A stretch of DNA of 32,000 bases, from contig CP104013.1 of assembly GCA_025839675.1 (NCBI GenBank), positions 4,350,001 to 4,382,000 of the forward strand. The letters are read 5' to 3'. Position 1 is the stretch's first letter; each line of letters starts with the position of its first letter. The position numbers and the translations under genes are program-made. Under the pieces are notes generated by a model. The model did no database searches. It saw only the letters and a list, made by a program, of their open reading frames with translations, and had not been told where the DNA came from. Positions 7,411 to 30,501 of this stretch are shown piece by piece. Source of the DNA: Candidatus Lokiarchaeum ossiferum. Lineage in GTDB: Archaea > Asgardarchaeota > Lokiarchaeia > Sigyniarchaeales > Promethearchaeaceae.

Positions 7411-7429
7411 CAAAAATGAAAAGAAAAAA
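7411..7429 (-). terminator. Oligo-T tracts just downstream of the 818-aa gene (candidate end of the long minus-strand operon)
   Basis: After the stop at 7430-7432 the minus strand reads TTTTTTCTTTTCATTTTTG. Confidence 0.35.
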
Positions 7430-9886
7430 TCATGAAACTATCTTATTTCCACATGCCACGCAGAAATTACTACCGTCAGGATTTTCTGTACCGCAATTCG
7501 GACATTTTATCGCATTTTCAGACATTGTTTCTTCAAATTCATGAAAATCAGGAAAATGAGCTTCAATTTTTAACCGGAGGTTATCTTCACGACGTTTAAT
7601 ATGTAACATCTTCTGGATATATTGCTCATATTTCTCCCGAATGATCGGAAATATGACTCCGTCTTTAATATCATCCCATAAAGACAAAGTTTCAAAGCTT
7701 TCATATCCAAATGACATTTTACACCATGAAACTGGTGTTAATCCTTCTGATTCTATCAAAGTAAACATTTTTTGTAATGTAGATTGATCGATCGAATAGG
7801 GAGTGATTTCTTGGGATAAATCATCAAGATTATCGGATAGGATAAATAAATTGGCTGCTTCTTCATCAACACACATGATACCGCATATTTTACCCTTTTG
7901 AAATCTCGGATCTTCAACAGAATCTGCAGCAATGTCTAAAGCTCCATGAGAATTTGGATTTGTTAAAAACTCTATCGTTTTTGCTCTTCCAAAATAGCGC
8001 ATTTCAATCCAACTATCTTGCGTTATTTTAGGAAATTCAGTATCTGTCCTTCTTTTATGGTGAATTTCTATTAATTTTTGAATTTCATCACCGGGAAGTT
8101 CTAGTTCTTCAAACACATTATCTTCAAAACCATTTCCTTCTAATTCTGTAAGCCCTAAAAATATTTGATTATTTCTTCGAATGCGAATAAATGCTTTTTG
8201 AAGCATATCTTCCAATTCATCGGGAGATTCAATATCTTTTTCATCCATTGCGATGAAGTCCTTTATTTGAGGGTTTCCTTCTACTTCTTCTTGGCTCCAA
8301 AAATTTGCCCACATTTGCATTCTTCTTAATTCTGGAATCATCCAAATATTTCTGCCGACCCCCATTGAGATCATGCAAACTGAACCGCCAATTTGCATTC
8401 CTTCCTTATTTGCGTAAGAAATAAGTGTTGGTGGGGGGTAAAATACTCTACTGATTGCTTCATCCTTCTGAGCAAGATCATCCAACTCGGACATTGCTGC
8501 AAGCGATGCTTCTAAATCTTTAAATATATCTTGCTGTGCCATAAGAGATGGATCAATTGAACCAAAATCTCCAAAATCACTTTCCAACGCAGCAGTTCCT
8601 GCTTGAAGGATTTTATCCATATTGTTTGGATCCATGACTTGATTGTCATTTTGATTAAAATTCACGTCGCTTGGGGATCGATTGAAGACATCCTCATATT
8701 CTTCTTCAGAAGGTTGTGATTCAGATAGTTTATTTGGAGTCGTTTTTTCTATTTTTGGAATTGCAATTGTTTTTAACGGTTTAAGGGCAATTTTAGCTAG
8801 TTCTGGTTTTTCTAGTTGTGAATTGGGTGTAGATTGTGACTCCGTTGTAATTTTAGTTAAATTTAATGGTGGAATTGCAATTTTTTCAAGTTGCGTTTGA
8901 GTTTTTTCTGTGAGATCTTTCTCTCTTTCTTGAGGTTCATTTCTTTCATCATGAGCCAACATTTCTGAAACTTTTTCTAAATTAAATGGATTTGATGGGA
9001 TTAATGTATCAACATATTCAAAGTGTGATGGATTTCCTGCCATTAAATCTTTCAAGTATTGATTATACTTCAAGATCGGTTTTGAAAATTGTGGTAAAAT
9101 TTCCATAGAGCGCCATTGTGGAAGATTTTGGAGTGCCCAAATGCCATAATCTAATTTAAATCCTCCTGTTGGAGAAAATTGTTTCATTTTAATGAGTTGT
9201 TCAACTGTATCTCTTCCTTTTTTATCAAGACTTAATGGTTGGAGTGTTTTTTCTTTAGTAATATTTTGTGATAGGATGACAAACTGAAATCTTTTTTTGG
9301 ATACGATATTAGTTCCAAAAATTCCACACAAACTCCCTCGAAAATATGCAGACATTTGAGAAAGTTGTTGTAATTCAAGTTTTTCCAAAGAATCTGATTG
9401 GCGGAAAAATTTTTCTCCTGTTCCAATGAATTGAGTGTAGATCGAATTTGTTTTCTTCTCCAAATCGGGATATATCTCATTTTGGTGATAATTTGAGGGC
9501 ATATTTTCAAAATATTTTGTCTTTCTACGAAACCAACTTCTCTCTTCAGTGATTTGCTTGTCAAATGGTTGAGGACCAAGATGTAAAAGACCAATAAAAA
9601 CATAGCCTTTTTTAATAATATATTCAAGTCCCTTAACGATCTGGGTGCTGATCCATGTGATATTTTTGGGATCATCAGAAGGATCTTTTTCCAGAGTAAT
9701 ATATTCCAATTCTTTATCAGAAACTTGAGTCCAAAACGATCTCCAGATCGAAGGATTATATAATTCTTGCACAATTTCTATATTTTTTTCCGGTGTTAAT
9801 GCAAGCATGCCTACAGAATGATTATATTTAATCAATTCTGCCGGATCGGATTCAAACATTACTGGGTAGGGATAAAATAATTTCAC
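7430..9886 (-). CDS. Large two-module protein of unknown family, with an acidic/Pro-rich disordered linker and a C-terminal zinc ribbon (paralog of 9929-11821)
   Basis: 818 aa with GTG start. The N-terminus MKLFYPYP parallels MRLYNPP of its neighbour. A second module starts at VFYPPP (residue 481). C-terminal CPNCGTENPDGSNFCVACGNKI (7433-7504) is a CxxC-x10-CxxC ribbon. I recognise no known catalytic motif. Confidence 0.8.
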   Translation of the reverse strand: MKLFYPYPVMFESDPAELIKYNHSVGMLALTPEKNIEIVQELYNPSIWRSFWTQVSDKELEYITLEKDPSDDPKNITWISTQIVKGLEYIIKKGYVFIGLLHLGPQPFDKQITEERSWFRRKTKYFENMPSNYHQNEIYPDLEKKTNSIYTQFIGTGEKFFRQSDSLEKLELQQLSQMSAYFRGSLCGIFGTNIVSKKRFQFVILSQNITKEKTLQPLSLDKKGRDTVEQLIKMKQFSPTGGFKLDYGIWALQNLPQWRSMEILPQFSKPILKYNQYLKDLMAGNPSHFEYVDTLIPSNPFNLEKVSEMLAHDERNEPQEREKDLTEKTQTQLEKIAIPPLNLTKITTESQSTPNSQLEKPELAKIALKPLKTIAIPKIEKTTPNKLSESQPSEEEYEDVFNRSPSDVNFNQNDNQVMDPNNMDKILQAGTAALESDFGDFGSIDPSLMAQQDIFKDLEASLAAMSELDDLAQKDEAISRVFYPPPTLISYANKEGMQIGGSVCMISMGVGRNIWMIPELRRMQMWANFWSQEEVEGNPQIKDFIAMDEKDIESPDELEDMLQKAFIRIRRNNQIFLGLTELEGNGFEDNVFEELELPGDEIQKLIEIHHKRRTDTEFPKITQDSWIEMRYFGRAKTIEFLTNPNSHGALDIAADSVEDPRFQKGKICGIMCVDEEAANLFILSDNLDDLSQEITPYSIDQSTLQKMFTLIESEGLTPVSWCKMSFGYESFETLSLWDDIKDGVIFPIIREKYEQYIQKMLHIKRREDNLRLKIEAHFPDFHEFEETMSENAIKCPNCGTENPDGSNFCVACGNKIVS

Positions 9887-9928
9887 TTTGATATACCTTT
9901 TGATTTTTTTTTTTAAATAGTTTTATGG

Positions 9929-11821
9929 TCAATATATGCGATACGGTTCTTCTTTCTCCTTGATTTTAATTAGTTCATCCATATATTTTTTATAATTTTC
10001 GAGAACTATTCTTAATGTGTCATATTGTACAGCGTCTTTCCAATATGGGTGTGTATGTAAAGTATCTTCCCCCAAATTAATTTTAAACCAACATAAAGGT
10101 GCCATATTTGTTTGGGATAAAGTTTCAAACATTTCGTTTAATGTTTCGGAGTCGAATTTAGTTCCATAATCTTCAAATGAGTTCGATAAAATATAAAAAG
10201 ATGTCGATTCTTGTGTTGTACAAACGATTCCTGCAGCAAAAGTATTGTCATAGGCAGAATCTACTTTTATTTTTTCTACAATATCTAAAATACTTGGGAA
10301 AGAATCTGCAAACGTAAAATAATGACTTCCCTTACCATACCACTGAACTCGTATATGTCCATCTTGGAGCTTTGGAAATTTTCCGTTTCTGATTTTGGTG
10401 TGATAATATTTTTGTATCCGCCTTAAATTTTTATCATCAATTTCAAGTTCTTGAAATAGACTAAATTCAAAACTATTTGATTCCAACTCTAACATCCCCA
10501 AAAAAGCTTCCGAACCTTTCATTATGTGCTGGAATGCTTGGATATAAGTGTCACGAAGTTGCACTGGATTTTCAAGTTCTAAAAATTGTTGATCCTCTTG
10601 AATATCATAAAAAACATTCTCATCAGTTTCCTTGGTGTTATCATCGTAGTAATATTCCCCCCAGGATAAATTTTCTCTTAAATCGAAAATGCAATTTATA
10701 TTTTCACCAACATCAATCGAAAGAAGTGTCAAAGCACCTCCAATAACTGCTCTTTTTTGATCTCCGTAGGCAAATAGAATTTTTGGTGGATTATAAAGTA
10801 AGCTGACAGCTCTATCTTCTTCAGCTAATTCATTCACTTTATTGAGGGCTTCCATGATTGTTTCCAGATCTTCTTCAATTTCATCTTCCGTCATATTTTT
10901 AATTGAAATTGGTTTGCCAAGATCTTCATCCAAAATATTTTCTACGGTCTTTTCTTCTCGCTTTATAATTAATCCTCGAACATAATCTAAATATTTAGAA
11001 TGAGCTTCTTGAACATCAGGTCGGTCTTTAATCTCATCATATCCATCCAATTGTTCCAATCCGGATAATCCTAAATCTACCTTAAACCATGAAATTGGTG
11101 CGGCTAAGACTCCTTTTTTTAGAAGTTGAAACATTTGATTTAAATTGTTTTTATCAATATGCACTTCAGCGGTTTTTTCTTGCTTGAATATATTATCTGT
11201 TAGAAGAATAAAATTAGCTGCACCTTGGGCGACGGCTACTATCCCAGAAGCATATCCTTGATACGGATACACCATTGCGGCAATATCGTTGAAATTCTTC
11301 TTGTTTGGGATTGTAAAAAAAGCAGATGTTTCCCCAAAAAAGTTGATTTCAACAAATGAGTTTCCACTTCCAGCCGCCTTATATAAATTCGGAAATTCAT
11401 TTTTTACACGACTAGATTTATATAAGTTCATTAATCGGTTTTGATCTTCGAGCTCTAATTCGACTTCATCAAATACAAATGTTTCAAATGCATTTCCTTC
11501 AAATGATGCTACTCCAAATAATATCAATCCCCGTGTCCGAATTCGATTCAAAGATGAAATTATACGACTTGCAAGTTCATTTGAATCATAAAGAGCTTCC
11601 GAATCTTCATGTTTGATATTAATTTTCTCAATTTGATCAGCGATCCGGATATTTTCTTTCCCTTTCCAAAATTCTCCTTGGCTCAACTCTGAAAAAATAT
11701 CCGAAATTTTTATGAATTCTTTTTCCTCATCCATCGCTAAAATGCATTTTGCTCCCGCTAGTTCAACACTATATTTATCACCTTTTGGTAATAACGCTAC
11801 GGGAGGATTATAAAGTCGCAT
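9929..11821 (-). CDS. Two-module protein of unknown family (paralog of 7430-9886)
   Basis: 630 aa from the ATG at 11821, which has GGTGA 5 nt upstream. The ORF-track start at 11833 is TTG. Module A covers residues ~1-295 and module B starts at LLYNPP (nt ~10801). It shares the motifs ...FLG(M/L).ELE.N.FE..(L/V)F.E(L/V)E..., GI(V/M)C/A....(A/S)..F.IL(S/T)(D/N)N and L(N/Q).MF..L......P(I/V/L).W(F/C)K(V/I/M).(L/F)G with the 818-aa protein. Confidence 0.8.
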   Translation of the reverse strand: MRLYNPPVALLPKGDKYSVELAGAKCILAMDEEKEFIKISDIFSELSQGEFWKGKENIRIADQIEKINIKHEDSEALYDSNELASRIISSLNRIRTRGLILFGVASFEGNAFETFVFDEVELELEDQNRLMNLYKSSRVKNEFPNLYKAAGSGNSFVEINFFGETSAFFTIPNKKNFNDIAAMVYPYQGYASGIVAVAQGAANFILLTDNIFKQEKTAEVHIDKNNLNQMFQLLKKGVLAAPISWFKVDLGLSGLEQLDGYDEIKDRPDVQEAHSKYLDYVRGLIIKREEKTVENILDEDLGKPISIKNMTEDEIEEDLETIMEALNKVNELAEEDRAVSLLYNPPKILFAYGDQKRAVIGGALTLLSIDVGENINCIFDLRENLSWGEYYYDDNTKETDENVFYDIQEDQQFLELENPVQLRDTYIQAFQHIMKGSEAFLGMLELESNSFEFSLFQELEIDDKNLRRIQKYYHTKIRNGKFPKLQDGHIRVQWYGKGSHYFTFADSFPSILDIVEKIKVDSAYDNTFAAGIVCTTQESTSFYILSNSFEDYGTKFDSETLNEMFETLSQTNMAPLCWFKINLGEDTLHTHPYWKDAVQYDTLRIVLENYKKYMDELIKIKEKEEPYRIY

Positions 11822-11836
11822 CAAATTCACCAAGTT

Positions 11837-13477
11837 TTATAAGTCAATCATTGAAAAATTTAAATCTAAGGTATGCAAAATCATTGGTAAATCATGCAAT
11901 TCTTCACCTTTCAATAGATCTGTACTCGCGCCATAGTTTGCTCGATCAGGAGTAATTAATCTGACCGTGTTCCACGTATCTAATGGTTTTTTTAAACCTG
12001 ATCGAAGATAGAGACCTAATGAGCCTTGAGGTGCTTCCACAACATCAATAAAATGCTGATTCGGTTCCCACTGAATACCATTTTCCATAATTTCAGATTT
12101 AAGATTCCTTCCATATGAAGATAATCCATGTAGAATGTGCTTGCAGATAGCAATCGATTCTTTAATTTCCCATAATCTTACTTGAGTTCTTGCAAAACTG
12201 TCGCCTTCTTTAAAAGTGATAACATTCCATACTTGAGATATTTCCCCTAAAGTATATGTTAAGTACGGATCATTTAAGCGAACATCAATTGGGATTCCAC
12301 TTCCTCTAATTGAAGGTCCCGTTAATCCGCTCTTAATTGCATTTTCTTGTGAGATTTTGCCAATATGCGCAAGATTTTGACTCACTTTTTGAGAGTATGT
12401 GAAATTATAAATATCATCAAATATCTGGTTTTCACTATCCCTAAAATAGTGATATAAATTTTGAGCCGCTGTCATAGATATATCTGTGGCTGATCCATAG
12501 CTGATGATGCTTAGCAAGTTTTTTGGATCCATGTGATTTTCTAAATGAATGGTGAGTTTCAAGTAATTTCGATAAATTTTTTTCGCCGCTCGTTTCATTC
12601 CAAATAAATCTGCAAGATTTGTGAACCACAATAAATGAGAAAAAATTCGTTCCAGCTCTGCCCCAAGGGTTCGAATAAACTTTGCCTTTAATGGGACTGA
12701 TTTCTCATTGATGAATTCAGACATCTGAGTATATAATAAATAATTATGAAAAGCATGATTTTTTGACAGTTCACTTAATACGGGGGCAAAACCATTGATA
12801 GGATCGGCGTTTTCTAAACGAGGTTGAAATTTTTTGTAGTTCCAGCCGTCCCGAATTTCAACTTTCTGAACAATATTTTCTTGAATATTGAGATCAAAAT
12901 AGTTTGCAGATTTATGAATCTCATCATAAATACCCGTTTTATCTTGAAACTGGGTTTGGGGCTTGAAATCAAAATTAGTTGGTGTACAGTAAAGATCTTC
13001 GTTTGATATTGCTTTATATGCAATATTAATAAATTCTATTCCCATTCGATGAGTTAACGTAGTTTCATGAATTTGGGCGTTCTTATATATTAAAGCAATT
13101 GAATCCAATTCTAATTTTTTTTTAATGACTAACTGGATGATGATTGATGATTTGTGAACAAAAGGGCGATTATGGAATAAGTAGTTTACTTCAAGTGAAT
13201 CTCCGATGTCAGAAGCAAAAATAGAAGACAAATTGAACTTTAAATCCCTGAAATACTTTGCAATATCTTTAATTCGAATTCTATTGACAAGTATCATGTT
13301 ATTATTCTCAGTTGAAATCCTTTTTAGAAAATCTAAGCCCAAAAAATTCTCGAGATTCGTGATTACTGCCTCAATACTAAGTTGCACGTTACGATTAGGT
13401 AAAACCTCACTTTGATGCGTTCTTACATCTGAATTTAGGGATATTTTTGGTAATCTACTTGATTCTGGGCCTTCCAT
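11837..13477 (-). CDS. NuoC-NuoD fusion-like protein (complex I 30-kDa/49-kDa, [NiFe]-hydrogenase large-subunit superfamily), degenerate and orphan
   Basis: NuoC-like part: DSLEVNYLFHN...YKNAQIHETTLTHRMGIEF (compare A-x-W-x-E-R-E-x-x-D-M-F-G-I-x-F). NuoD-like part: AELERIFSHLLWF, GLTGPSIRGSGIPIDVRLNDPYLTY, GDSFARTQVRLWEIKESI, VEAPQGSLGLYLRSG, VRLITPDRANYG. At the position of the hydrogenase RxCGxCxxxH motif it reads LSELSKNHAFH, and the C-terminus is LNFSMIDL. Neither contains any Cys. Confidence 0.75.
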   Translation of the reverse strand: MEGPESSRLPKISLNSDVRTHQSEVLPNRNVQLSIEAVITNLENFLGLDFLKRISTENNNMILVNRIRIKDIAKYFRDLKFNLSSIFASDIGDSLEVNYLFHNRPFVHKSSIIIQLVIKKKLELDSIALIYKNAQIHETTLTHRMGIEFINIAYKAISNEDLYCTPTNFDFKPQTQFQDKTGIYDEIHKSANYFDLNIQENIVQKVEIRDGWNYKKFQPRLENADPINGFAPVLSELSKNHAFHNYLLYTQMSEFINEKSVPLKAKFIRTLGAELERIFSHLLWFTNLADLFGMKRAAKKIYRNYLKLTIHLENHMDPKNLLSIISYGSATDISMTAAQNLYHYFRDSENQIFDDIYNFTYSQKVSQNLAHIGKISQENAIKSGLTGPSIRGSGIPIDVRLNDPYLTYTLGEISQVWNVITFKEGDSFARTQVRLWEIKESIAICKHILHGLSSYGRNLKSEIMENGIQWEPNQHFIDVVEAPQGSLGLYLRSGLKKPLDTWNTVRLITPDRANYGASTDLLKGEELHDLPMILHTLDLNFSMIDL

Positions 13478-13556
13478 ATTGGGTTCCTTTTATTCAATTA
13501 ATTTTAGAAATGGAGAAATGCAGATTTCTCCTACTTAAACATTGGTTTTTAAACAT

Positions 13557-14075
13557 TTAATGCTTTTGAGGTATGAAAAGGTAATTTTGCAGTTGGCGCC
13601 AATTAATAATAGAGTGATGAAAAATAATTTTTTTAGAAATCCCAATCCAAAGTAATCCGATAAGTCCTATTATTTCAGTACTATACACGAGTGGATTATT
13701 AAATAAAGTGTAAAAAAAATCTTCAATTTTCGATTCATATATTGTAATTGGTACTATAGGCCATAGCCAAGGGACTGCTGGAATATCTAATAATAAATGA
13801 AACAAAGTTCCGATTCCAAAAGACGAAGCTACATTCTTGTTTTTCGTTAGTAGAAATAAAATCAAGCTTATAATTCCCAATAAAAGCGGGGTATGGAAAT
13901 ATCCTCTTCCTCCAGCAATCCCAAAAATGAGAAACAATGGTTTATCTATAAGATCTGGAAAGATAGATCCTACAATAATCCAGAATATATGTATTTCTGG
14001 TTTTTTTTCCTTTTTAATCAACAATAATATTTCAACACAAAGTAATGGGACAAATATATGGAATAAGATGAACAT
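13557..14075 (-). CDS. Membrane-bound metal-dependent hydrolase-like protein (DUF457/YdjM-like), putative
   Basis: 172 aa and polytopic. IFPDLIDKPL, GGRGYFHTPLL and LFHLLLD resemble the LPDIDH / GHRGxTHS / SHLxxD pattern of DUF457 proteins. The first motif lacks the His. Confidence 0.45.
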   Translation of the reverse strand: MFILFHIFVPLLCVEILLLIKKEKKPEIHIFWIIVGSIFPDLIDKPLFLIFGIAGGRGYFHTPLLLGIISLILFLLTKNKNVASSFGIGTLFHLLLDIPAVPWLWPIVPITIYESKIEDFFYTLFNNPLVYSTEIIGLIGLLWIGISKKIIFHHSIINWRQLQNYLFIPQKH

Positions 14076-14083
14076 TTGTTAAG

Positions 14084-15406
14084 CTAAATAATGAAGCGTG
14101 ATAAATAAACAAAAGCAACTGCCATAAAAGTAATGATTCCACTCATTTTCAGTGCCATTTTTAATAAATAATTGTAGGATAAGGGCTTTGGGGTGAATTT
14201 ATCTGTTTTTTGCAAAATAGAATCAATTTGTGGTAATCCAAAGCCTTGTGTATATTCTGGAAGTTGCAAAATCATTGAATTTTGTTGAAATAAAGACACT
14301 AAATCTGTTGAAGTACAATTTGGGACAACTTGTAGGAATAATGCTGCAAAACCCGCAAAAATGGCCGCCGCACTTGATGTTCCTGATATTCTAGAACTTG
14401 TTGCAGGAACATTTTTTCCAGGAAGGACAAATGTTGGTTTTAATTGTGAGGATTTGTTAAATGAAGCGCTTGAATTTCTACCTGAAAAGAAGAGCTTTTT
14501 ATATTGTTGATCGACTGCTCCAATACATATTACGTTTGGATTCATACTTGGATTACCAATATTCCCCGGATCTGGTCCTAAGTTTCCTGTTGGTGCTATT
14601 AGAATTATATTTTTTGAGGACAATAACGGTAAATAATGGCTGAATAAATCATCTGAAACGCCTTTAGAGCCTGTAGAACATCCAAAAAGCAGAATATGGG
14701 GCATTTCTTCTTGTGGTAAATCAAGTAGGTTTTCTAACCCTTGTATTATATCACTTAAAGTTGAAGATCCATCAGAATCAAAAACTTTAATGTCGATTAG
14801 TTTAATATTGGGGGCAATTCCCGCAAATAAATTTTGAGAGTTCTGTCCCGACCCAACAATGATACTGGCTAAATTCGTTCCATGAAGGTTATAGTGATTT
14901 GAATCTCCAATCGAATCTCCAATTTGTTTGATCTGTTTTTTAGAATATCCTAATTTATTAGGATCAATTCCTGAGTCTAGTATTGCAATGCGAATGCCTT
15001 TGCCGGTAATTTCTTCATAGGAATTATGAATTTCTTCAAGATTTATTTCTTCATTAAATTCTTCTCCACATAAATAGATTGGATAGTTACCATATATTCT
15101 AATGATTTCGTGGTTATCTGATAACTGGTAACATTCCTGGTACGTCGATTCTAACAATGCTATAGGAAAATGATGAAATTCTGATAGTATCTTCAATTTT
15201 ACATTTGAATCAGCCTGAGAATTTTTAATATTATTAACAAACTGTTCCAATTGTTCCAAATCTCCAAATTGGACGAGATAATTAATGATTATTTCGTTTG
15301 ACAACCTTTCCAAATCGAATTCATTTTCCAGTAATTCAATCGGAGAATGTTTCGCCACCCAAAGCTCAATGGGATCAAAATTTTCATGGAATTTGGATAT
15401 AATCAT
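14084..15406 (-). CDS. Subtilisin-like serine protease (peptidase S8) with a C-terminal TM anchor and no signal peptide
   Basis: Catalytic motifs in canonical order: IAILDSGID (Asp144), HGTNLASII (His175), APTGNLG (oxyanion Asn275), SGTSSAAAIFAG (Ser344). One hydrophobic helix at ~417-437, 3 residues from the C-terminus. The N-terminal ~130 aa are hydrophilic and acidic. GAGGT Shine-Dalgarno ~10 nt upstream. Confidence 0.8.
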   Translation of the reverse strand: MIISKFHENFDPIELWVAKHSPIELLENEFDLERLSNEIIINYLVQFGDLEQLEQFVNNIKNSQADSNVKLKILSEFHHFPIALLESTYQECYQLSDNHEIIRIYGNYPIYLCGEEFNEEINLEEIHNSYEEITGKGIRIAILDSGIDPNKLGYSKKQIKQIGDSIGDSNHYNLHGTNLASIIVGSGQNSQNLFAGIAPNIKLIDIKVFDSDGSSTLSDIIQGLENLLDLPQEEMPHILLFGCSTGSKGVSDDLFSHYLPLLSSKNIILIAPTGNLGPDPGNIGNPSMNPNVICIGAVDQQYKKLFFSGRNSSASFNKSSQLKPTFVLPGKNVPATSSRISGTSSAAAIFAGFAALFLQVVPNCTSTDLVSLFQQNSMILQLPEYTQGFGLPQIDSILQKTDKFTPKPLSYNYLLKMALKMSGIITFMAVAFVYLSRFII

Positions 15407-15468
15407 TAAAAAGAGACCTCAGTAAATAAAATAAGATGAAGACCTTTAAAAATATACAAGGTAAAAGA

Positions 15469-16221
15469 TTAATTGTGCTCTCTGATTTTATTCAAAATAT
15501 CTTCTAAAGCAAAATCTGCCATACCTAAGCTTGTGTTTGCATTGAACAGAAGCACTACGTATATTGGGGTATGAAAAGTCTCAATAGAAACGACTTGAGA
15601 AAAAATCAATTTATCGCCACCTTGCCAAATGAATTTAGGATTAGAGACGATTTCTCTTCGATTAGCCTTCGATCGTAGCTCTATTTCCCGCAAACTGGTT
15701 TCCAAATCTTCTAGTGGCAATGAAGAATAGTAGATTTCCCCTTTTAACGACATTAGTGCTGCAGCAAGAAGATCTCCTCTGGATATTTCCCCTTCAAAAA
15801 TATGTTTTAATGATTCGATGTTTGTATCACTGTAATCATCTTGGAAATTGAAAATTTCATCAATACGATTCTCTGTATCTTCATCGTCCAAAAAAATATT
15901 CGTGTCCAATGCCCGTTGGATTTTATCAAGATCAACGGCTGAAATTATTCGATCCATTCTTTCATCTAATAAAAGAGCACTCGAATCACTCGAAGTAATT
16001 ACTATGAAAATAAAATCTCCATGATGACGAAAGAAAAAACGAAGGCTTCCCATTTCCAAAATATTAAGTTTTTGATTAACAATTGTACTTGAAAAAGCCA
16101 TTATTGCCCCAAAAAAAGAAGAAAGTAGGGTAAAATCCGTTTTTATTAGTTCCTCGCTGAAATTTTTGTGATAAATTGGAATTCCAGAATTGTGGAGTAT
16201 GAAAAAACTATGAATTTGCAT
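15469..16221 (-). CDS. Two-domain protein: N-terminal longin-like domain plus C-terminal Roadblock/LC7-like domain (putative)
   Basis: The N-terminus MQIHSFFILHNSGIPIYHKNF...DFTLLSSFFGAIMAFSS...LEMGSLRFFFRHHGDFIFIVITS follows the longin / sigma-adaptin-like beta-beta-alpha-beta-beta-beta pattern. The C-terminus LLAAALMSLKGEIYYSSL...KFIWQGGDKLIFSQV...IYVVLLFNANTSLGMADFALEDILNKI follows the Roadblock pattern. Assigned by pattern only. Confidence 0.45.
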   Translation of the reverse strand: MQIHSFFILHNSGIPIYHKNFSEELIKTDFTLLSSFFGAIMAFSSTIVNQKLNILEMGSLRFFFRHHGDFIFIVITSSDSSALLLDERMDRIISAVDLDKIQRALDTNIFLDDEDTENRIDEIFNFQDDYSDTNIESLKHIFEGEISRGDLLAAALMSLKGEIYYSSLPLEDLETSLREIELRSKANRREIVSNPKFIWQGGDKLIFSQVVSIETFHTPIYVVLLFNANTSLGMADFALEDILNKIREHN

Positions 16222-16230
16222 TGCGAGTTC

Positions 16231-16680
16231 TTATTCCTGTGTTCGTTCCATTTGTAATTTGTAGAGTACAATCCTAAATCGTAATATATCCTTTAAAATT
16301 TTCTCAGGATGAGGTGTTTGCCCAGTAATAATAAAGGAATCATTACCTTCTAACGGAAAAATAACAAAATTCTTCTTTTCACCAAAGTTATAAGATATAT
16401 ACTTTAGAGGATTTTCTTCTTCATTGGGAAATAGTTTCAAAATTTGATATCGAATGAAATATTCACTCATTTTAGCATTGTATCTTTTTGATTGCTTATG
16501 ATCCTCAAGGTAGTTTTCTGAGAAAACACTCATGATTTCTAGTCCTTTAATCTTTCCAGTTACTCCGACTAAAGCTAAAAAAGAAGATTGAGATTTTTTA
16601 AGGGTTGATTCAAATTGCTGTTCTAGCTCCTTTATTGCTTCAATTTCTTGTTTAGAAAAGAATTTTGAAAGAATTCCCAT
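16231..16680 (-). CDS. Roadblock/LC7-fold-like small protein (putative)
   Basis: 149 aa. The predicted alpha-beta-beta-alpha-beta-beta-alpha order is readable from the sequence: EIEAIKELEQQFESTL / FLALVGVTG / IKGLEIMSV / YNAKMSEYFIRYQILKLF / LKYISYNFGEKK / FVIFPLEGNDSFIITG / PEKILKDILRFRIVLYKL. Confidence 0.4.
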   Translation of the reverse strand: MGILSKFFSKQEIEAIKELEQQFESTLKKSQSSFLALVGVTGKIKGLEIMSVFSENYLEDHKQSKRYNAKMSEYFIRYQILKLFPNEEENPLKYISYNFGEKKNFVIFPLEGNDSFIITGQTPHPEKILKDILRFRIVLYKLQMERTQE

Positions 16681-16697
16681 TATTATTTCAATCCTTT

Positions 16698-17162
16698 CTA
16701 ACTCATTTCACTCTCAAAAATGCATTTTTTGCATCCATTGGCGATAAGTTCTTTTGGTTCCATGTAAAATTGTTTGTCTGGAAACGCAAGTTGAAGGGCT
16801 GTATCAAATAATCCTTCTGTATAGTGGCAGAAAAATTCCATATCTTGAATGGGAAACCCTCCTGCTTTTTTATAAGGGCATGCATCTAATTCGATATCAA
16901 TTTTATTTCCATTTAGTTTTACTGACCCCTTATTTTCACCGATAACCGGTTCGATTACCTCAGACACGAGTAAATTGCAAAATTCCTCTACTGTAGTATA
17001 TTTTCCTTTAAATTTCCGGAAAATATCTTCTGCAGCGGCTTCACCAACTCTACGGAAAATCATCGTTAACGTTTCAAAGCCAAGGGTATCTTTAATCTCC
17101 TTTAAACTCATTTGAAATATATTTGCAATAAATTTTAATTGTCTAACTCTTTTTGTGACCAT
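16698..17162 (-). CDS. V4R (4-vinyl reductase / Bet3-TRAPP-related) domain protein
   Basis: IFRRVGEAAAEDI..., ELDACPYKK...FFCHYTEGLFDTALQLAF and C-terminal ELIANGCKKCIFESE match the V4R pattern (C-x-x-C... C-H-x-x-x-G-x-x-x-G ... E-x-x-C-x-x-x-G-x-x-x-C-x-F). I chose the start at ATG 17162 because GGTGA lies 5 nt upstream and abuts the upstream stop (TAAGGTGAAAAGAATG). An alternative ATG at 17189 would overlap the Roadblock gene by 17 nt. Confidence 0.6.
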   Translation of the reverse strand: MVTKRVRQLKFIANIFQMSLKEIKDTLGFETLTMIFRRVGEAAAEDIFRKFKGKYTTVEEFCNLLVSEVIEPVIGENKGSVKLNGNKIDIELDACPYKKAGGFPIQDMEFFCHYTEGLFDTALQLAFPDKQFYMEPKELIANGCKKCIFESEMS

Positions 17163-17172
17163 TCTTTTCACC

Positions 17173-17550
17173 TTATCCAAAAATTTCATTCAACTTCTCT
17201 GCTGCATCTTCCAGTTCCAAACTAATCAATCCTAAGTTTGGTTCTTGTTTAGTCAATACAATTAAGATCACTTTTCCTGTGAAAAGTAAGAAAACATTCC
17301 CAGTTGAAATTTCAATATTTAGCGATTTAAATTCTCCTTTTAGTAATTCTCCAGATGCTCGTTTGGAGATACTGTATAAAGCCGAAGCCATAGCTCCTAA
17401 AAGGCGTTCTGATTTTTTATCTTGGCTGATAGTTTTTCGTAGAGATAAAATAATCAAACCATTTGTTCGAGCAATAGCAAGATCATTTAAATCTGGAGCT
17501 CTGTTGTGTAGATCCTCCAGTAATTTTCTTGCTTCATCCATCCTACTCAT
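17173..17550 (-). CDS. Roadblock/LC7 (MglB-like) domain protein
   Basis: LNDLAIARTNGLIILSL...LLGAMASALYSISKRASGELLKGEFKSLNIEISTGNVFLLFTGKVILIVLTKQEPNLGLISLELEDAAEKL is a textbook Roadblock/LC7 pattern. I chose the start at ATG 17550, preceded by GGGGAG. The ORF extends to 17622, but its first 24 codons look non-coding. Confidence 0.75.
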   Translation of the reverse strand: MSRMDEARKLLEDLHNRAPDLNDLAIARTNGLIILSLRKTISQDKKSERLLGAMASALYSISKRASGELLKGEFKSLNIEISTGNVFLLFTGKVILIVLTKQEPNLGLISLELEDAAEKLNEIFG

Positions 17551-17573
17551 TTTTTTCTCCCCTCTCTGTCCTA

Positions 17574-17583
17574 TTTTAAATAT
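17574..17583 (-). promoter_or_regulatory. Candidate TATA box for the Roadblock-led operon
   Basis: The minus strand reads ATATTTAAAA 24-33 nt upstream of the ATG at 17550, inside a 280-nt AT-rich gap to the upstream gene. Confidence 0.3.
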
Positions 17584-17833
17584 CTGTTTTGTTCCATCAA
17601 AAAAAAGGTTTGTTGTAAACATAAAATTTCTCTTTACGATATGTATGGGAGAGAAATTTGTATTGTGATAAAATGAGTTTTTTTAACTTAAATTATTATG
17701 GTCACCAAACTTCGTTCATTAACAATTTAATCTTTTATTTATATTCTTTTTTCTTCTGCTTTAAAGCATGAAAAAATTCACTGCATAGATATCGAAAATA
17801 AATTTAGATTCTGAAGAGAATCTTCAATTCATA

Positions 17834-27340: not shown

Positions 27341-28255
27341 ATGGAAAATAGCAAGATGACCGAACTATCTGAATTTAAAAAAAAATTTCAAAATCATCAA
27401 ATCTCCGATGAAGGTGTGGAAATACCTCTTATTTTAGAAGGTCAATATCGGCGTGCTTATGATATATTAACTGATGCTTATAATGCTGGGCTCTATGCTG
27501 GAATTGTGGGTCCAGTCGGATCCGGAAAAACTGCTCTCTGTCGGAAATTTGCCGAGGATCAAAAGCTTGGCTTTTCTTGGGTTACATTTTCCGATTTAAT
27601 TCGCCCAAGTTCATTGATAGGTACATTTGATCCAACATTAGTATTCAAGTTGGGATATAGTGTGGATTCCTTTATCCCTGGACCTTTCACCTTAGCTAGC
27701 ATTGAAGGTAATATTTTCTTTGCAAATGAAGTAAATCGTGGTGAAGAGTATGTTTTGAACACATTGCTTGATGCGTTGGAAGAAAAGCGCCTCTATATAC
27801 CACAATTAAAGACTTGGGTATCCTTAGATGATCAGTTTTATTTTATTGCTTCAATGAATCCAAGTGACCTTCGCGGGACACGCGTATTACCCGAAGCATT
27901 TAAGGATCGGATACGGGTCTGGATCACCCTCGATTATCCTACCAAAGACGTTGAAAAAAAAATCATTCGAATGAATTGTCCTGAATTGAGTTTACGAGAA
28001 CAAGATATTGATAAAATTATTGAAATTGTGGCTCAAACACGTCAATCTCCTTTGATAACTAAGCCAGCCTCCATTCGAACTTCTATTAGTTTTGCGAAAT
28101 TGCTTGGACAAAGATGCAGTCGGTTAAATGTTGAACCTTCTTTAGATCTCTTTGTGGATATTGGTCGTTTAGTTTTAAATCAAAATTTAGAATCTAGTCC
28201 CGGAATTACTGTTGAAAAGATTGTTGATGAGATAATTTCAGCTGTTTTTTGTTAA
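27341..28255 (+). CDS. AAA+ ATPase of the MoxR / CbbQ-NorQ-GvpN (AAA_5) class
   Basis: Walker A GPVGSGKT (27509-27532). Walker B region IFFANEVNR (27713-27739), with Asn at the usual Asp position. Sensor-1-like FIASMNP. LPEAFKDRI. Lid segment KPASIRTSISFAKL. Confidence 0.8.
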   Translation: MENSKMTELSEFKKKFQNHQISDEGVEIPLILEGQYRRAYDILTDAYNAGLYAGIVGPVGSGKTALCRKFAEDQKLGFSWVTFSDLIRPSSLIGTFDPTLVFKLGYSVDSFIPGPFTLASIEGNIFFANEVNRGEEYVLNTLLDALEEKRLYIPQLKTWVSLDDQFYFIASMNPSDLRGTRVLPEAFKDRIRVWITLDYPTKDVEKKIIRMNCPELSLREQDIDKIIEIVAQTRQSPLITKPASIRTSISFAKLLGQRCSRLNVEPSLDLFVDIGRLVLNQNLESSPGITVEKIVDEIISAVFC

Positions 28256-28296
28256 ACATCTAGGAATTTAGATATGCAAAAATTGGATAAATAAAA

Positions 28297-30501
28297 ATGT
28301 TTGGAATCGCTCTTGATCTTGAAGAATTTATCTCTACTTTTATCCGTCGGATGCGGCAACATGAGAAAATTCGAAGTCCTCCGAGTATTCGTCAAGGGAT
28401 TGCTCTTTTTAAACTTCTAAATTCTCGTTTCCATCGATCTCCTCCCCTAAACATGCAAGATCTTTTGGAAGCAGCTATTATCACCACTTATTACTTGGAT
28501 CAACATATAGCTTCTGAAATTGCCCAAGATATCATCATCAGCACTTTGAACGAACGCATTGCAGATTCTCGGGAATTCCGAAGCTATGGAACATACGAAA
28601 ATTTACTTACCTTAGGCAATTTTGGGGCGGATTATTTGAAAGATATCAGGGTCTTGGATAAATTAATGAAGGCGGATCCTTCTGTCTTCCAAGATACTTC
28701 CAAGTTCTTAGATGAAATCTATGATGCCATAAAACAAGACTTAAGTCTTCAAGATCTACAATTTCTCGAAAAACGTGATAAATTAGAAGAAAATCTTGGT
28801 GATATTACTGATCCTGAACTTTCCATGTATGCTAATAAACTTCTTGGGAATGATAATCAATGGAAATCCCAGTTGGGTGAAATAATGCAAGATTTATCGA
28901 AAGATCTGCAGAAAATATTTAAGAATTTAAATGAATTGGGTGTTTCTAACGATGAAATTGAACAAATGAAGCAAGAATTTTGTATGGACGATAAAGATGG
29001 TAACTCACAATTCAAAAATTCTTCCGATTCTCGAGATTTTTCAGATTCTCATTCCGACTCTCTCACTCAACAGATATCAGATTCGATCGCCTCCAATTCT
29101 TTATCGCAGGATTCATCACGCTCTGAACTTGATCCAGATCAAATGGATCCTATGAATTTTTCTCAATTAAAAGAACTGATGGAAAAAAGCACAAAAATAC
29201 CTCCACAGTCTTCCTGGGATTCCACAAAATTTAAACAAGCTCTTGAAGAGATAAGATCAGCTGCGAAAGATCTATTGCAGCAAAGTACGACACAAGAACA
29301 ATTTTTCGAACAATTACAAGAAATGATGGAAAATTTGGTTCCTTGTGATATTCAAGATATTCAGGACATTGCCAATAATTTAGGGGTGGATCCATCTCAC
29401 CTCGATACAATACTTAATCAACCCTTGAATAATTTGCATGATCTAATTGAAAAAAATTTAGGAAATATGGGGCAATTTTCCAATATGATTCAACAATTGG
29501 GTCCAGATTCAAATATGAGCCGTGATTTGATTCAAAAAGGTATAGAATTTCAAAATTCCGAATTTCTGGGCTCTATGGCTCAATTCTCGCTAGAAGAAAC
29601 TGCCAATGCTGTAGCCAAGAAAAATAGTGATAGGTTGAATGCCTTGTTTTTACAGGGGCTTCGAAAAGCTTCTGGGGATAACCTCCTTCATTCGTGGTTT
29701 TTTCATCAATCCAAACTGTCTACCTCCATACGTGTGCTAATTAAACAATTTCTTCAACAACTCATTATTGATAAAGCCTGTTTTGTTGTAAAACATCAAA
29801 TGGGGAAGTTGAAACATGGTTTGATGTTCTCATCTCAAGATTTGCGATATTATCGTCCTGGAGATCCCATTTCTCAAGTCGATTTGGAGGCAACCTTTGA
29901 ACATTTATTAGATCAAGGGAAAAATCTCTCCACATTGAATCAAAATGATATCCTATGTCGGAAAGAAGGAGGAAGCTCAGTGAAATGTTTTCTTATTCTC
30001 GATAAATCTGGTTCTATGGAAGGAACGAAATTAAAACTCGCAACCTATTCAACCGCGGTGTTATCTTCTTTTCTCAAACGGGAAGATTTTTCAATAGTTC
30101 TCTTCGATAGCGATGCTTATAAATTCAAAACCTTCACTTCGCATGTAGATCTCGATACAATCGTAAGTTCCTTATTGGATCTTTCGGCTGAAGGTGGGAC
30201 TCAGATCGAACAAACTCTAAACTATGTTGCTCAAGAATGTGCAAAATGCCCCGCGAATCAAAAATTTCTCATCTTTCTTTTTTCGGATTTGGCTGTCTAT
30301 GAACAACCTGCCGAACTAAAGACCATTCTAAATCAAATGCAAAAATATCAAATTGATATTCATTTATTTCATCCTGAAAATCCCAATAAACTAATTTTGC
30401 AATGTTTAGAATCCATTTTACCCGTCTATGTTCATCACATTACTTCATTAAGCCAGATCCCTCAAATTTTAACTCGAGCTTTTCATACGGCTTTAAAATA
30501 A
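28297..30501 (+). CDS. Large von Willebrand factor A (VWA) domain protein, partner of the upstream AAA+ (CbbO/NorD-like architecture)
   Basis: C-terminal VWA domain with MIDAS D-x-S-x-S in FLILDKSGSMEG (30001-30015), plus later T and D positions (AEGGTQIE, FLFSDL). Long helical N-terminal region. Asp/Ser-rich low-complexity segment around 28990-29150. Starts 41 nt after the ATPase stop. Confidence 0.8.
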   Translation: MFGIALDLEEFISTFIRRMRQHEKIRSPPSIRQGIALFKLLNSRFHRSPPLNMQDLLEAAIITTYYLDQHIASEIAQDIIISTLNERIADSREFRSYGTYENLLTLGNFGADYLKDIRVLDKLMKADPSVFQDTSKFLDEIYDAIKQDLSLQDLQFLEKRDKLEENLGDITDPELSMYANKLLGNDNQWKSQLGEIMQDLSKDLQKIFKNLNELGVSNDEIEQMKQEFCMDDKDGNSQFKNSSDSRDFSDSHSDSLTQQISDSIASNSLSQDSSRSELDPDQMDPMNFSQLKELMEKSTKIPPQSSWDSTKFKQALEEIRSAAKDLLQQSTTQEQFFEQLQEMMENLVPCDIQDIQDIANNLGVDPSHLDTILNQPLNNLHDLIEKNLGNMGQFSNMIQQLGPDSNMSRDLIQKGIEFQNSEFLGSMAQFSLEETANAVAKKNSDRLNALFLQGLRKASGDNLLHSWFFHQSKLSTSIRVLIKQFLQQLIIDKACFVVKHQMGKLKHGLMFSSQDLRYYRPGDPISQVDLEATFEHLLDQGKNLSTLNQNDILCRKEGGSSVKCFLILDKSGSMEGTKLKLATYSTAVLSSFLKREDFSIVLFDSDAYKFKTFTSHVDLDTIVSSLLDLSAEGGTQIEQTLNYVAQECAKCPANQKFLIFLFSDLAVYEQPAELKTILNQMQKYQIDIHLFHPENPNKLILQCLESILPVYVHHITSLSQIPQILTRAFHTALK

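Follow-up and report, generated by a model that had tools for sequence, protein, structure and literature searches.

A four-gene Roadblock/longin cassette upstream of a conserved five-gene subtilase cluster in Promethearchaeaceae

We analyzed a window of 32,000 nt from the genome of Candidatus Lokiarchaeum ossiferum (contig CP104013.1, positions 4,350,001 to 4,382,000; all positions given below are those of the window), an Asgard archaeon of the family Promethearchaeaceae, to which Promethearchaeum and Harpocratesius also belong. Open reading frames (ORFs) and direct reading of the sequence place nine consecutive genes, here called g1 to g9, in tandem on the minus strand from position 7430 to position 17550 (Table 1), with intergenic gaps of 10, 17, 9, 62, 8, 79, 15, and 42 nt from g1 to g9. 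The starts used were 17550 for g1 (MSRMDE...), 17162 for g2, and 11821 for g8; those of g1 and g2 are backed by ortholog alignments, and that of g8 is backed by the deposited 630-amino-acid (aa) protein and its orthologs. With the same starts, the nine minus-strand genes and all eight gap lengths listed in a preliminary description of this DNA were reproduced exactly. That description treated the genes as a single operon-like array that joins small Roadblock, V4R, and longin "platform" proteins to a protease, a NuoCD-like protein, and two large paralogs. The array is indeed real, operon-like, and conserved, but it is divisible: it consists of two units, an optional, accessory cassette of four platform genes (g1 to g4) located 5' of a core of five genes (g5 to g9), and the core also occurs without the platform genes.

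The core comprises the genes for an S8 subtilase (g5), a YdjM-type membrane protein (g6), a NuoCD-like protein (g7), the 630-aa protein (g8), and a protein that is ~780 aa long in relatives (g9), and it was present in every Promethearchaeaceae relative examined. The core order is kept in P. syntrophicum MK-D1, in H. repetitus FW102, and on at least eight contigs from metagenome-assembled genomes (MAGs) or metagenomes, always beside the genes for dUTPase and arginyl-tRNA synthetase (ArgRS) and with short gaps or overlapping genes. This arrangement persists at sequence identities as low as 25 to 33% for S8 and 32 to 46% for the NuoCD-like protein; one distant locus lacks S8. Two further loci (L017 and L019) have the complete nine-gene order, with g8 proteins that share 61% identity with that of the window, and three others (L003, L008, and L018) have partial copies that are truncated at a contig end or interrupted by a transposase-like ORF. 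Chance alone does not explain an arrangement whose complete order is found again in divergent genomes. Synteny in related genomes was looked for and found; the array is a genuine gene cluster of the Promethearchaeaceae, passed on by vertical descent.

The four platform genes are missing upstream of the core in MK-D1, Harpocratesius repetitus, and other MAGs. In these cassette-less genomes, S8 directly abuts a divergent FAD_binding_2 gene; the cassette thus occurs, or is missing, as one block at a single position. The g4 family consists of only 13 clusters among 5.8 billion clustered proteins, and g4 lies directly upstream of S8 in all five copies whose downstream side can be read (the window, L003, L008, L017, and L019). 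At L008 (positions 156 to 821), a 221-aa transposase-like ORF occupies the place of g1 and g2, directly upstream of g3 and g4, which suggests that the cassette is disrupted in that MAG. S8, g8, and g9 are each split into two or more ORFs at L003 (524 to 1929 and 4181 to 8581) and L007; since the pieces are highly similar to intact orthologs, these splits are probably assembly or sequencing frameshifts and not pseudogenes.

Table 1. Genes and candidate signals of the array, with positions in the 32,000-nt window
Feature	Position	Strand	Description	Basis
Upstream gap of g1	17551..17833	-	283 nt, 75% A+T; candidate cassette promoter	Sequence read directly
g1	17173..17550	-	125-aa Roadblock/LC7 protein	Pfam Robl_LC7, E = 1.6e-6
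g2	16698..17162	-	154-aa V4R/TRAPPC3-like candidate	70-79% identity to orthologs
g3	16231..16680	-	149-aa protein, family not recognized	Alignment of 5 orthologs
g4	15469..16221	-	250 aa; longin (aa 1-107) and Roadblock (aa 132-249) domains	Pfam, AlphaFold2 (AF2) model
g4-g5 gap	15407..15468	-	62 nt, TATA-like TATATTTTTAAAG at 15444-15456; candidate internal core promoter	Sequence read directly
g5	14084..15406	-	440-aa S8 subtilase, single transmembrane (TM) segment at extreme C terminus	Pfam, hydropathy scan
g6	13557..14075	-	172-aa YdjM/DUF457 polytopic membrane protein	Pfam, hydropathy
g7	11837..13477	-	546-aa NuoC-NuoD fusion-like protein	Pfam Complex1_30kDa and Complex1_49kDa
g8	9929..11821	-	630 aa; two module copies (N, 10946-11821; C, 9932-10810), acidic helical linker	Repeat search
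g9	7430..9886	-	818-aa paralog of g8; module N 9002-9886, linker 8456-9001, module C 7553-8455, zinc ribbon 7439-7510	
Oligo-T tracts TTTTTTCTTTTCATTTTTG	7411..7429	-	First 19 nt 3' of g9 stop; candidate archaeal terminator	

The first gene of the core encodes a protein that matches the Pfam Peptidase_S8 model (E = 3.5e-29, 102.5 bits), with the triad motifs DSG, HGT, and GTS intact in the window copy. Among 15 S8 orthologs, none has lost the catalytic Asp or His, and 14 retain the Ser nucleophile; the L021 protein has Cys instead (GTC), and the L011 protein reads GSS with the nucleophile retained. A hydropathy scan found the C-terminal TM segment in 15 of 15 orthologs and an N-terminal hydrophobic segment in none of them. 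Because no signal-like N-terminal segment is found, the S8 domain is predicted to face the cytoplasm. The sequence thus fits a tail-anchored protease with a cytoplasmic catalytic domain, and the tail-anchored subtilase named in the preliminary description is recovered as a Peptidase_S8 protein with one C-terminal hydrophobic segment. The best NCBIfam match of g5 is mycosin (MycP) of the type VII secretion system (T7SS), but the TIGR03921 score of 84.6 lies below the cutoff of 278.75. Like g5, mycosin is an S8 protease with a C-terminal TM anchor that is encoded within an operon for a multiprotein membrane complex. Mycosins are exported proteins; g5, unlike mycosin, has no signal peptide, and no ESX/T7SS components were found among the array or neighboring genes.

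The g6 protein, previously described as DUF457-like, scores above the cutoff for Pfam YdjM (41.3 bits against 29) and has a weak match to Zn_dep_PLPC. It contains five hydrophobic segments by hydropathy, and seven of its residues (H6, D41, D44, H61, H93, D97, and E134) are near-invariant in 15 orthologs. The gap between g6 and g7 contains a stem-loop, GGAGAAAT-CTGC-ATTTCTCC (13512 to 13531, minus strand), with a perfect stem of 8 bp, a loop of 4 nt, and A/T-rich sequence after it; this gap is not kept in relatives, in some of which the YdjM and NuoCD-like genes overlap.

The g7 protein carries a NuoC domain (PF00329, E = 1.7e-6) and a NuoD domain (PF00346, E = 8.6e-29) and matches NuoD, NdhH, and Mbh-L in the PDB at E values of 1e-18 to 1e-10. 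However, its NCBIfam scores are far below the cutoffs (124 against 360 for NuoD, 98 against 600 for FpoD, and 55 against 840 for NuoCD). It has two Cys residues and no CxxC, no Cys is conserved across 17 orthologs, and the quinone-site His and Tyr were judged by eye to be absent. No gene for NuoB, NuoI, NuoH, or an antiporter-like partner was found in the array, in the window flanks, or at the loci of relatives. The orthologs are nevertheless full-length and intact at 17 loci, with ~60 near-invariant residues. The protein therefore resembles the Q-module of complex I and membrane-bound hydrogenase in its NuoC and NuoD domains, with most of its D part aligning to NdhH, NuoD, NUCM, and MbhL, but it differs from complex I and group-4 [NiFe] hydrogenases in having no Cys ligands and no NuoB, NuoI, or NuoH and in being encoded beside a protease and g8/g9. 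These observations agree with the earlier description of a degenerate, orphan NuoCD fusion and suggest that g7 is probably a pseudoenzyme kept for a structural role.

The two largest products, g8 and g9, had been described as multimodule paralogs of unrecognized family. The g8 protein and NEF87_003727 of Candidatus Lokiarchaeum ossiferum have the same sequence (100% identity). It contains an internal repeat (E = 6e-24), and BLASTP comparison of g8 with g9 aligned four module pairs (E = 1e-45, 5e-33, 2e-12, and 5e-9); together, the two proteins hold four copies of one module of ~290 aa, with pairwise E values of 1e-10 to 1e-43, and no internal duplication was detected within the module. The module has no Pfam or NCBIfam match, and the AF2 model of g8 (predicted local distance difference test score [pLDDT], 83.4) has no PDB or BFVD (viral) fold match with an E value of <0.001. 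A search of 1.84 billion proteins with a g8-family profile, for which the full-length g8 alignment was the query, recovered only 67 representatives, including complete single-module proteins of ~335 aa and a fusion of the module with TPR repeats. The module thus constitutes an undescribed family, without a Pfam, PDB, or literature record. In region 10001 to 15640 of locus L020, an 844-aa protein joins one module to a long TPR-repeat region, and a gene for a Prok-JAB (JAMM) protease lies two genes downstream of this fusion, a single case that is of note in view of the weak MPN-like signal of the module.

Candidate identities for the module were considered and rejected. MPN domains recurred among its weak Foldseek matches, at E values of 0.65 or worse, but it has no JAMM motif (HxH...S..D): HxH is missing, and the equivalent position reads W-F-K. 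Its core strands align with those of AMSH-LP, but the profile E value was ~1 and hhalign gave a probability of 6%, with an AMSH-LP sequence that was approximate; an MPN/JAMM identity is a lead only. Matches of the g8 model to the giant-virus mRNA 5'-phosphatase (triphosphate tunnel) fold had probabilities of 0.06 or lower.

In g9, the two modules are joined by a P/K/E/S-rich, low-complexity linker of ~180 aa (170 to 217 aa among orthologs) that is probably disordered. All 13 orthologs, with or without the cassette, contain the linker motif (E/D)(E/D)YED(V/I)F (EEYEDVF in the window) followed by an acidic helix; binding through a short linear motif and cleavage are both possible roles of this region. 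The C-terminal zinc ribbon (Zn_Ribbon_1, E = 5.6e-8) was seen in the window copy and in the distant ortholog at L015 only, the other orthologs stopping just past the second module. A TTG-initiated ORF of 180 aa lies in another frame wholly within g9 (9232 to 9774, minus strand); it is Lys/Leu rich and of low complexity and is almost certainly not a gene.

The four cassette products had been labeled Roadblock/LC7, V4R, Roadblock-like, and longin plus Roadblock-like. The first label is borne out by Pfam (Table 1) and by Roadblock structures in the PDB: the profile of g1 orthologs matched Roadblock3 of MK-D1 (9jue, E = 2e-9) and a Thor Roadblock protein (7f8m, E = 1e-8), with MglB at E values of 0.12 to 0.2. 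The g1 gene is the most conserved of the array (76 to 82% identity to orthologs). For g2, the V4R label is weakly supported. Four Cys residues (C95, C112, C144, and C147) are invariant in the ortholog alignment and probably form a zinc site, and Pfam MetOD1 is matched by three of four orthologs (best E = 4e-5). In contrast, the window copy falls below the Pfam cutoff, no PDB sequence was matched, and the hhalign comparison with the Pfam-V4R protein of L021, in which C95, C112, and C147 line up, gave a probability of 9.5%. A four-Cys zinc site has been described for Thor-TRAPPC3 and PoxR (PMC10933270). Assignment of g2 to the V4R/TRAPPC3 proteins is therefore plausible, not proven.

The Roadblock-like label of g3 is supported by no tool. 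Pfam, NCBIfam, and PDB searches gave no match for g3, and hhalign comparisons with g1, g4, and two small GTPases gave probabilities of ~1% or less throughout; a degenerate GTPase is likewise rejected, the values for the two Asgard GTPases being 0.08% and 0.24%. In the five orthologs, the N terminus MGILS(K/R)(F/L)FSKQ is invariant, and a Gly/Lys loop, VGxxGKxKGL, is conserved at aa 38 to 47. The N terminus resembles an Arf-type N-terminal helix or an MGxxxS motif.

Both domains claimed for g4 are present in its AF2 model (pLDDT, 83.2), and the longin domain is also found by Pfam as Fuz_longin_1 (PF19036, the first longin domain of FUZ, MON1, and HPS1; 32 bits against a cutoff of 26.1), which is annotated on five g4 orthologs as well. 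In a Foldseek search of the PDB with the model, the top matches were Mon1/Ccz1, BLOC-3 (HPS1/4), and Fuzzy/Inturned, at E values of 8e-9 to 1e-5, followed in rank by MglB, Asgard Roadblock proteins, and LAMTOR. By sequence and predicted fold, g4 thus most closely resembles the subunits of tri-longin-domain guanine nucleotide exchange factors (GEFs) acting on Rab proteins (RabGEFs).

The preliminary description reported that the array and its flanks have no G1 P-loop, and a motif scan gave the same result: GxxxxGK[ST] occurs in none of the nine products, and the sole Walker A motif in a real gene of the window is that of a MoxR AAA ATPase at 27509. The flanking genes gave no GTPase Pfam match, the window contains no Rag gene, and the complete arrays of L017 and L019 contain no GTPase. 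No NTPase fold was found among the PDB matches of the g8 model, which covers g9 by paralogy, and a divergent GTPase among the nine products was not detected by motif, by the fold of g8, or by hhalign with g3. The MoxR-type ATPase (AAA_5) is followed by the gene for a 734-aa VWA-domain protein (27341 to 30501); a similar pair also lies a few kilobases from single-module genes at L093 and probably reflects regional synteny. The missing GTPase had been read as a departure from the norm for Roadblock genes. None is adjacent here, but this is usual for Lokiarchaea: Tran et al. (2024, PMC10933270) state that operons of MK-D1 do not as a rule combine small-GTPase genes with those for Roadblock, longin, or TRAPPC3 proteins, and the lack of one is therefore the norm for the clade and not an anomaly.

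Whether a GTPase appears in some versions of the locus had been raised in the preliminary description, and it does so in two arrangements. In a sister lineage, here termed lineage B (L021, L023, and L024), genes for a Rab-like GTPase and a V4R protein stand ~1.9 kb from the module gene at all three loci. S8 stands beside the single-module gene at L021 and L023 and the NuoCD-like gene at L021 only, with changed, convergent orientation; YdjM is absent from this arrangement. At L021 (6756 to 13978), genes for a V4R protein (159 aa), a Rab-like GTPase (~185 aa), and a small TM protein lie on one strand, after which come genes for a 2-hydroxyacid dehydrogenase and a 338-aa single-module protein and then convergent genes for a NuoCD-like protein (517 aa) and a tail-anchored S8 protease (454 aa). 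In the second arrangement, a single-module gene is preceded, 153 nt upstream and in the same orientation, by a gene for a 182-aa Rab-like GTPase (L072, 927 to 1475; L086, 130 to 678) with the motifs GQSGVGKT, WDFGSQE, and TKND or TKHD. The link between module and GTPase is thus recurrent but sporadic, and most single-module loci have no GTPase. The single-module proteins of ~335 aa are common in low-GC (28 to 33%) marine-sediment metagenomes (L026 to L102; for example, L077, 7989 to 8999). Of the metagenomic relatives outside lineage B (127 found, with the loci of 80 examined), most present a housekeeping context, with dUTPase, two ACS-like genes of 502 aa, the module, and GatC and with neither S8 nor NuoCD. 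Because single-module loci usually keep the order with dUTPase, the linkage of module and dUTPase is older than the Promethearchaeaceae core operon.

Candidate transcription signals flank both units. A TATA-like element, ATATTTAAAATA, lies at 17572 to 17583, which is 22 to 33 nt before the g1 ATG, and GGAG is found 11 nt ahead of that ATG; the AT-rich upstream gap with a TATA-like element and the oligo-T tracts after the last gene, both noted previously, were seen again in the positions given in Table 1. Among relatives, four genomes, two with the cassette and two without it, share a conserved 55-nt S8-proximal element, CGAATAGCTGAAAATTTAAGAAG...ATTGGATCATAT, just upstream of S8. The g4-g5 gap of the window does not align to this element but has a TATA-like element of its own (Table 1). 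Together, the conservation of the S8-proximal element with and without the cassette and the TATA-like element in the window suggest that the core probably retains its own candidate promoter, with read-through from the cassette into the core possible. The flanks of the array are housekeeping genes, encoding ArgRS, dUTPase, an epimerase, a thioesterase, a CDP-alcohol phosphatidyltransferase, and an FAD flavoprotein. The GC content of the array matches that of its surroundings, and scans of the window gave no Rfam or tRNA match.

The cassette shares parts with several known GTPase platforms. RabGEFs of the tri-longin-domain class (Mon1-Ccz1, BLOC-3, and CPLANE) resemble g4, which passes the Pfam model for their first longin domain and aligns best with them in fold; g4, however, has two domains in 250 aa, whereas their subunits have three consecutive longin/Roadblock-type domains in ~400 to 570 aa. 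Moreover, a tri-longin RabGEF is a heterodimer of paralogs, whereas the array has one longin-containing gene and no cognate Rab gene nearby. As in the TRAPP core, a multisubunit Rab GEF of Bet3-family (V4R-related) and longin/sedlin subunits, a small V4R-like protein (g2, by a weak assignment) and a longin protein (g4) are encoded together, and Asgard TRAPPC3/V4R proteins with four-Cys zinc sites are documented (PMC10933270). Unlike those of TRAPP, the longin domain of g4 is of the Mon1/Fuz type and not of the sedlin or Bet5 type, with no match to the Sedlin or Sybindin Pfam models, and Roadblock proteins, which the cassette has in g1 and the C-terminal domain of g4, are not TRAPP subunits. 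Roadblock domains in small, co-encoded proteins (g1 and the C-terminal half of g4) recall Ragulator-Rag and MglB-MglA, and a platform anchored to the membrane would be plausible here as well. In Ragulator, a lipid-anchored LAMTOR1 wraps two Roadblock heterodimers, which dock the Roadblock domains of Rag GTPases. In contrast to MglB, which classically neighbors MglA, the cassette has no adjacent GTPase; in contrast to Ragulator, no LAMTOR1 homolog was detected in the array and no Rag gene lies in the window, and anchoring here would be via S8 and YdjM and not by lipidation.

Liu et al. described an Asgard operon that encodes a LAMTOR1-like Roadblock protein, a Rab-like GTPase, and a DENN-domain protein (bioRxiv 10.1101/2020.10.19.343400). 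The array is comparable to it as a conserved Asgard neighborhood that combines Roadblock-superfamily proteins with larger, eukaryote-like proteins of trafficking type. It differs in having no GTPase and no DENN protein, in containing a protease, YdjM, a pseudo-NuoCD protein, and a new module, and in occurring in Promethearchaeaceae only. A characterized pathway that matches the array was looked for in Pfam, NCBIfam, PADLOC, and the literature, and none was found; the literature searches brought up no description of the array, its locus tags, or Asgard homologs of tri-longin GEFs. The cassette is partly homologous to the longin/Roadblock GTPase platforms of eukaryotes yet departs from each of the named complexes, and we rate the composition of the array as categorically new, with a core that has no characterized counterpart.

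We hypothesize, as the most likely function, that the core is a membrane protease/scaffold assembly that is coupled in some lineages to a small GTPase via the cassette. The tail anchor of S8 and YdjM would tether the assembled core products to the cytoplasmic side of the membrane, and the NuoCD-like protein and the four modules would form a noncatalytic scaffold or a substrate-presenting platform for the protease and the hydrolase. Where the cassette is present, as in L. ossiferum, its four small products would form a Roadblock/longin/V4R heteromer comparable to Ragulator, TRAPP, and Mon1-Ccz1, through which a small GTPase with its gene elsewhere in the genome would control the core. Synteny and domain content are observed, and the remaining steps are what we infer; for the statement as a whole our confidence is tentative and stays somewhat short of even. 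Several points weigh against it. The core does not need the cassette, and most core-bearing genomes are without it. Synteny throughout the family extends over the entire stretch between FAD_binding_2 and dUTPase and ArgRS, and gene order alone overstates functional coupling. The V4R label of g2 is weak, and the Roadblock label of g3 is unsupported. The promoter-like element of the core suggests that cassette and core may be separate transcription units, the only argument for the cytoplasmic side of S8 is the missing signal-like segment, and most single-module relatives have no S8, NuoCD, or GTPase gene nearby.

Some of these points would equally be expected if the two units were unrelated neighbors, the cassette being a free-standing GTPase-regulatory or ligand-sensing platform and the core a separate operon, with their adjacency inherited without coupling. 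The core stands alone in MK-D1, H. repetitus, and several MAGs, its promoter-like element is conserved regardless of the cassette, the g4-g5 gap measures 62 to 100 nt against 9 to 17 nt within the cassette, conservation is sharply unequal (70 to 82% identity for g1 and g2 against 25 to 33% for S8), and the surrounding region is syntenic in general. We nevertheless consider such independence rather unlikely, though a serious contender. The cassette families were seen only here, on the same strand and directly 5' of S8, even where g8 is no more than 61% identical, and no copy of g4 was found elsewhere among the clustered proteins searched. In addition, V4R and Rab-like GTPase genes lie near the module gene at every lineage B locus, and a Rab-like GTPase gene does so at L072 and L086. 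An assembly free of NTPases, in which the cassette would sense a small molecule or lipid through V4R/TRAPPC3-type cavities and gate the protease and hydrolase directly, would account for the lack of a GTPase in the window and in the other complete arrays. The four-Cys site of g2, typical of V4R and PoxR proteins, is in keeping with it, as is the view of Tran et al. that Asgard TRAPP/V4R proteins probably act in ligand binding (PMC10933270). This we judge improbable given that the best matches of g4 are RabGEF subunits and that GTPase genes adjoin some distant module genes. To our knowledge, every characterized Roadblock/longin platform (MglB, Ragulator, TRAPP, and Mon1-Ccz1) acts on a small GTPase. 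Lokiarchaea, moreover, encode many unlinked small GTPases (PMC10933270).

Two further explanations deny the core or the array a function of the kind proposed. The core could be the decaying remnant of a complex I or group-4 hydrogenase-type complex, with g7 as a relic in a cluster without coherent function, given that g7 clearly derives from NuoC and NuoD and has lost all redox ligands and partner subunits. The intact g7 orthologs and their near-invariant residues speak against decay, as does the retention of the gene over deep divergence with tight spacing to, or overlap with, its neighbors; no pseudogene signs were seen apart from the split ORFs in a few low-quality contigs (L003 and L007), and we regard a remnant as very improbable. 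We give next to no credence to a defense island or mobile element. The weak matches of g5 to a PADLOC antiphage subtilase (1.7e-16) and IetS (5.6e-10) and to NCBIfam IteS (4e-7) point in that direction, but the IetS matches cover the generic S8 domain only, and the other products match no PADLOC system apart from a weak LmuC hit on g6. The array also has the GC content of its surroundings and no flanking integrase or repeats, and throughout the family it occupies the same chromosomal site among housekeeping genes. Returning to the coupled protease/scaffold assembly, a bolder form of it would make the cassette an archaeal multisubunit platform, similar to a GEF or a GTPase-activating protein, that mixes the TRAPP, Ragulator, and tri-longin fold classes and docks on a new membrane-anchored machine. 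This extension is a long shot; if true, it would provide the first concrete effector for Asgard small-GTPase signaling and a natural presence/absence comparison between L. ossiferum, with the cassette, and MK-D1, without it.

The Roadblock, longin, and V4R/TRAPPC3 proteins of Asgard archaea, which number in the dozens, are thought to foreshadow the membrane-trafficking regulators of eukaryotes, and we know of no target for any of them. Their genes rarely adjoin those of partners (PMC10933270). Because the cassette is found only at the head of the core operon, the core is a candidate partner machine. As predicted from sequence, this machine is unprecedented in combining a putatively cytoplasm-facing subtilase, a YdjM hydrolase, a respiratory pseudoenzyme, and a new domain family. 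Of the two cultured Lokiarchaea, which share the core, L. ossiferum alone has the cassette, so that the proposed coupling of the two units is directly testable. The array thus gives a concrete candidate partner for the eukaryote-like GTPase-platform proteins of Asgard archaea.

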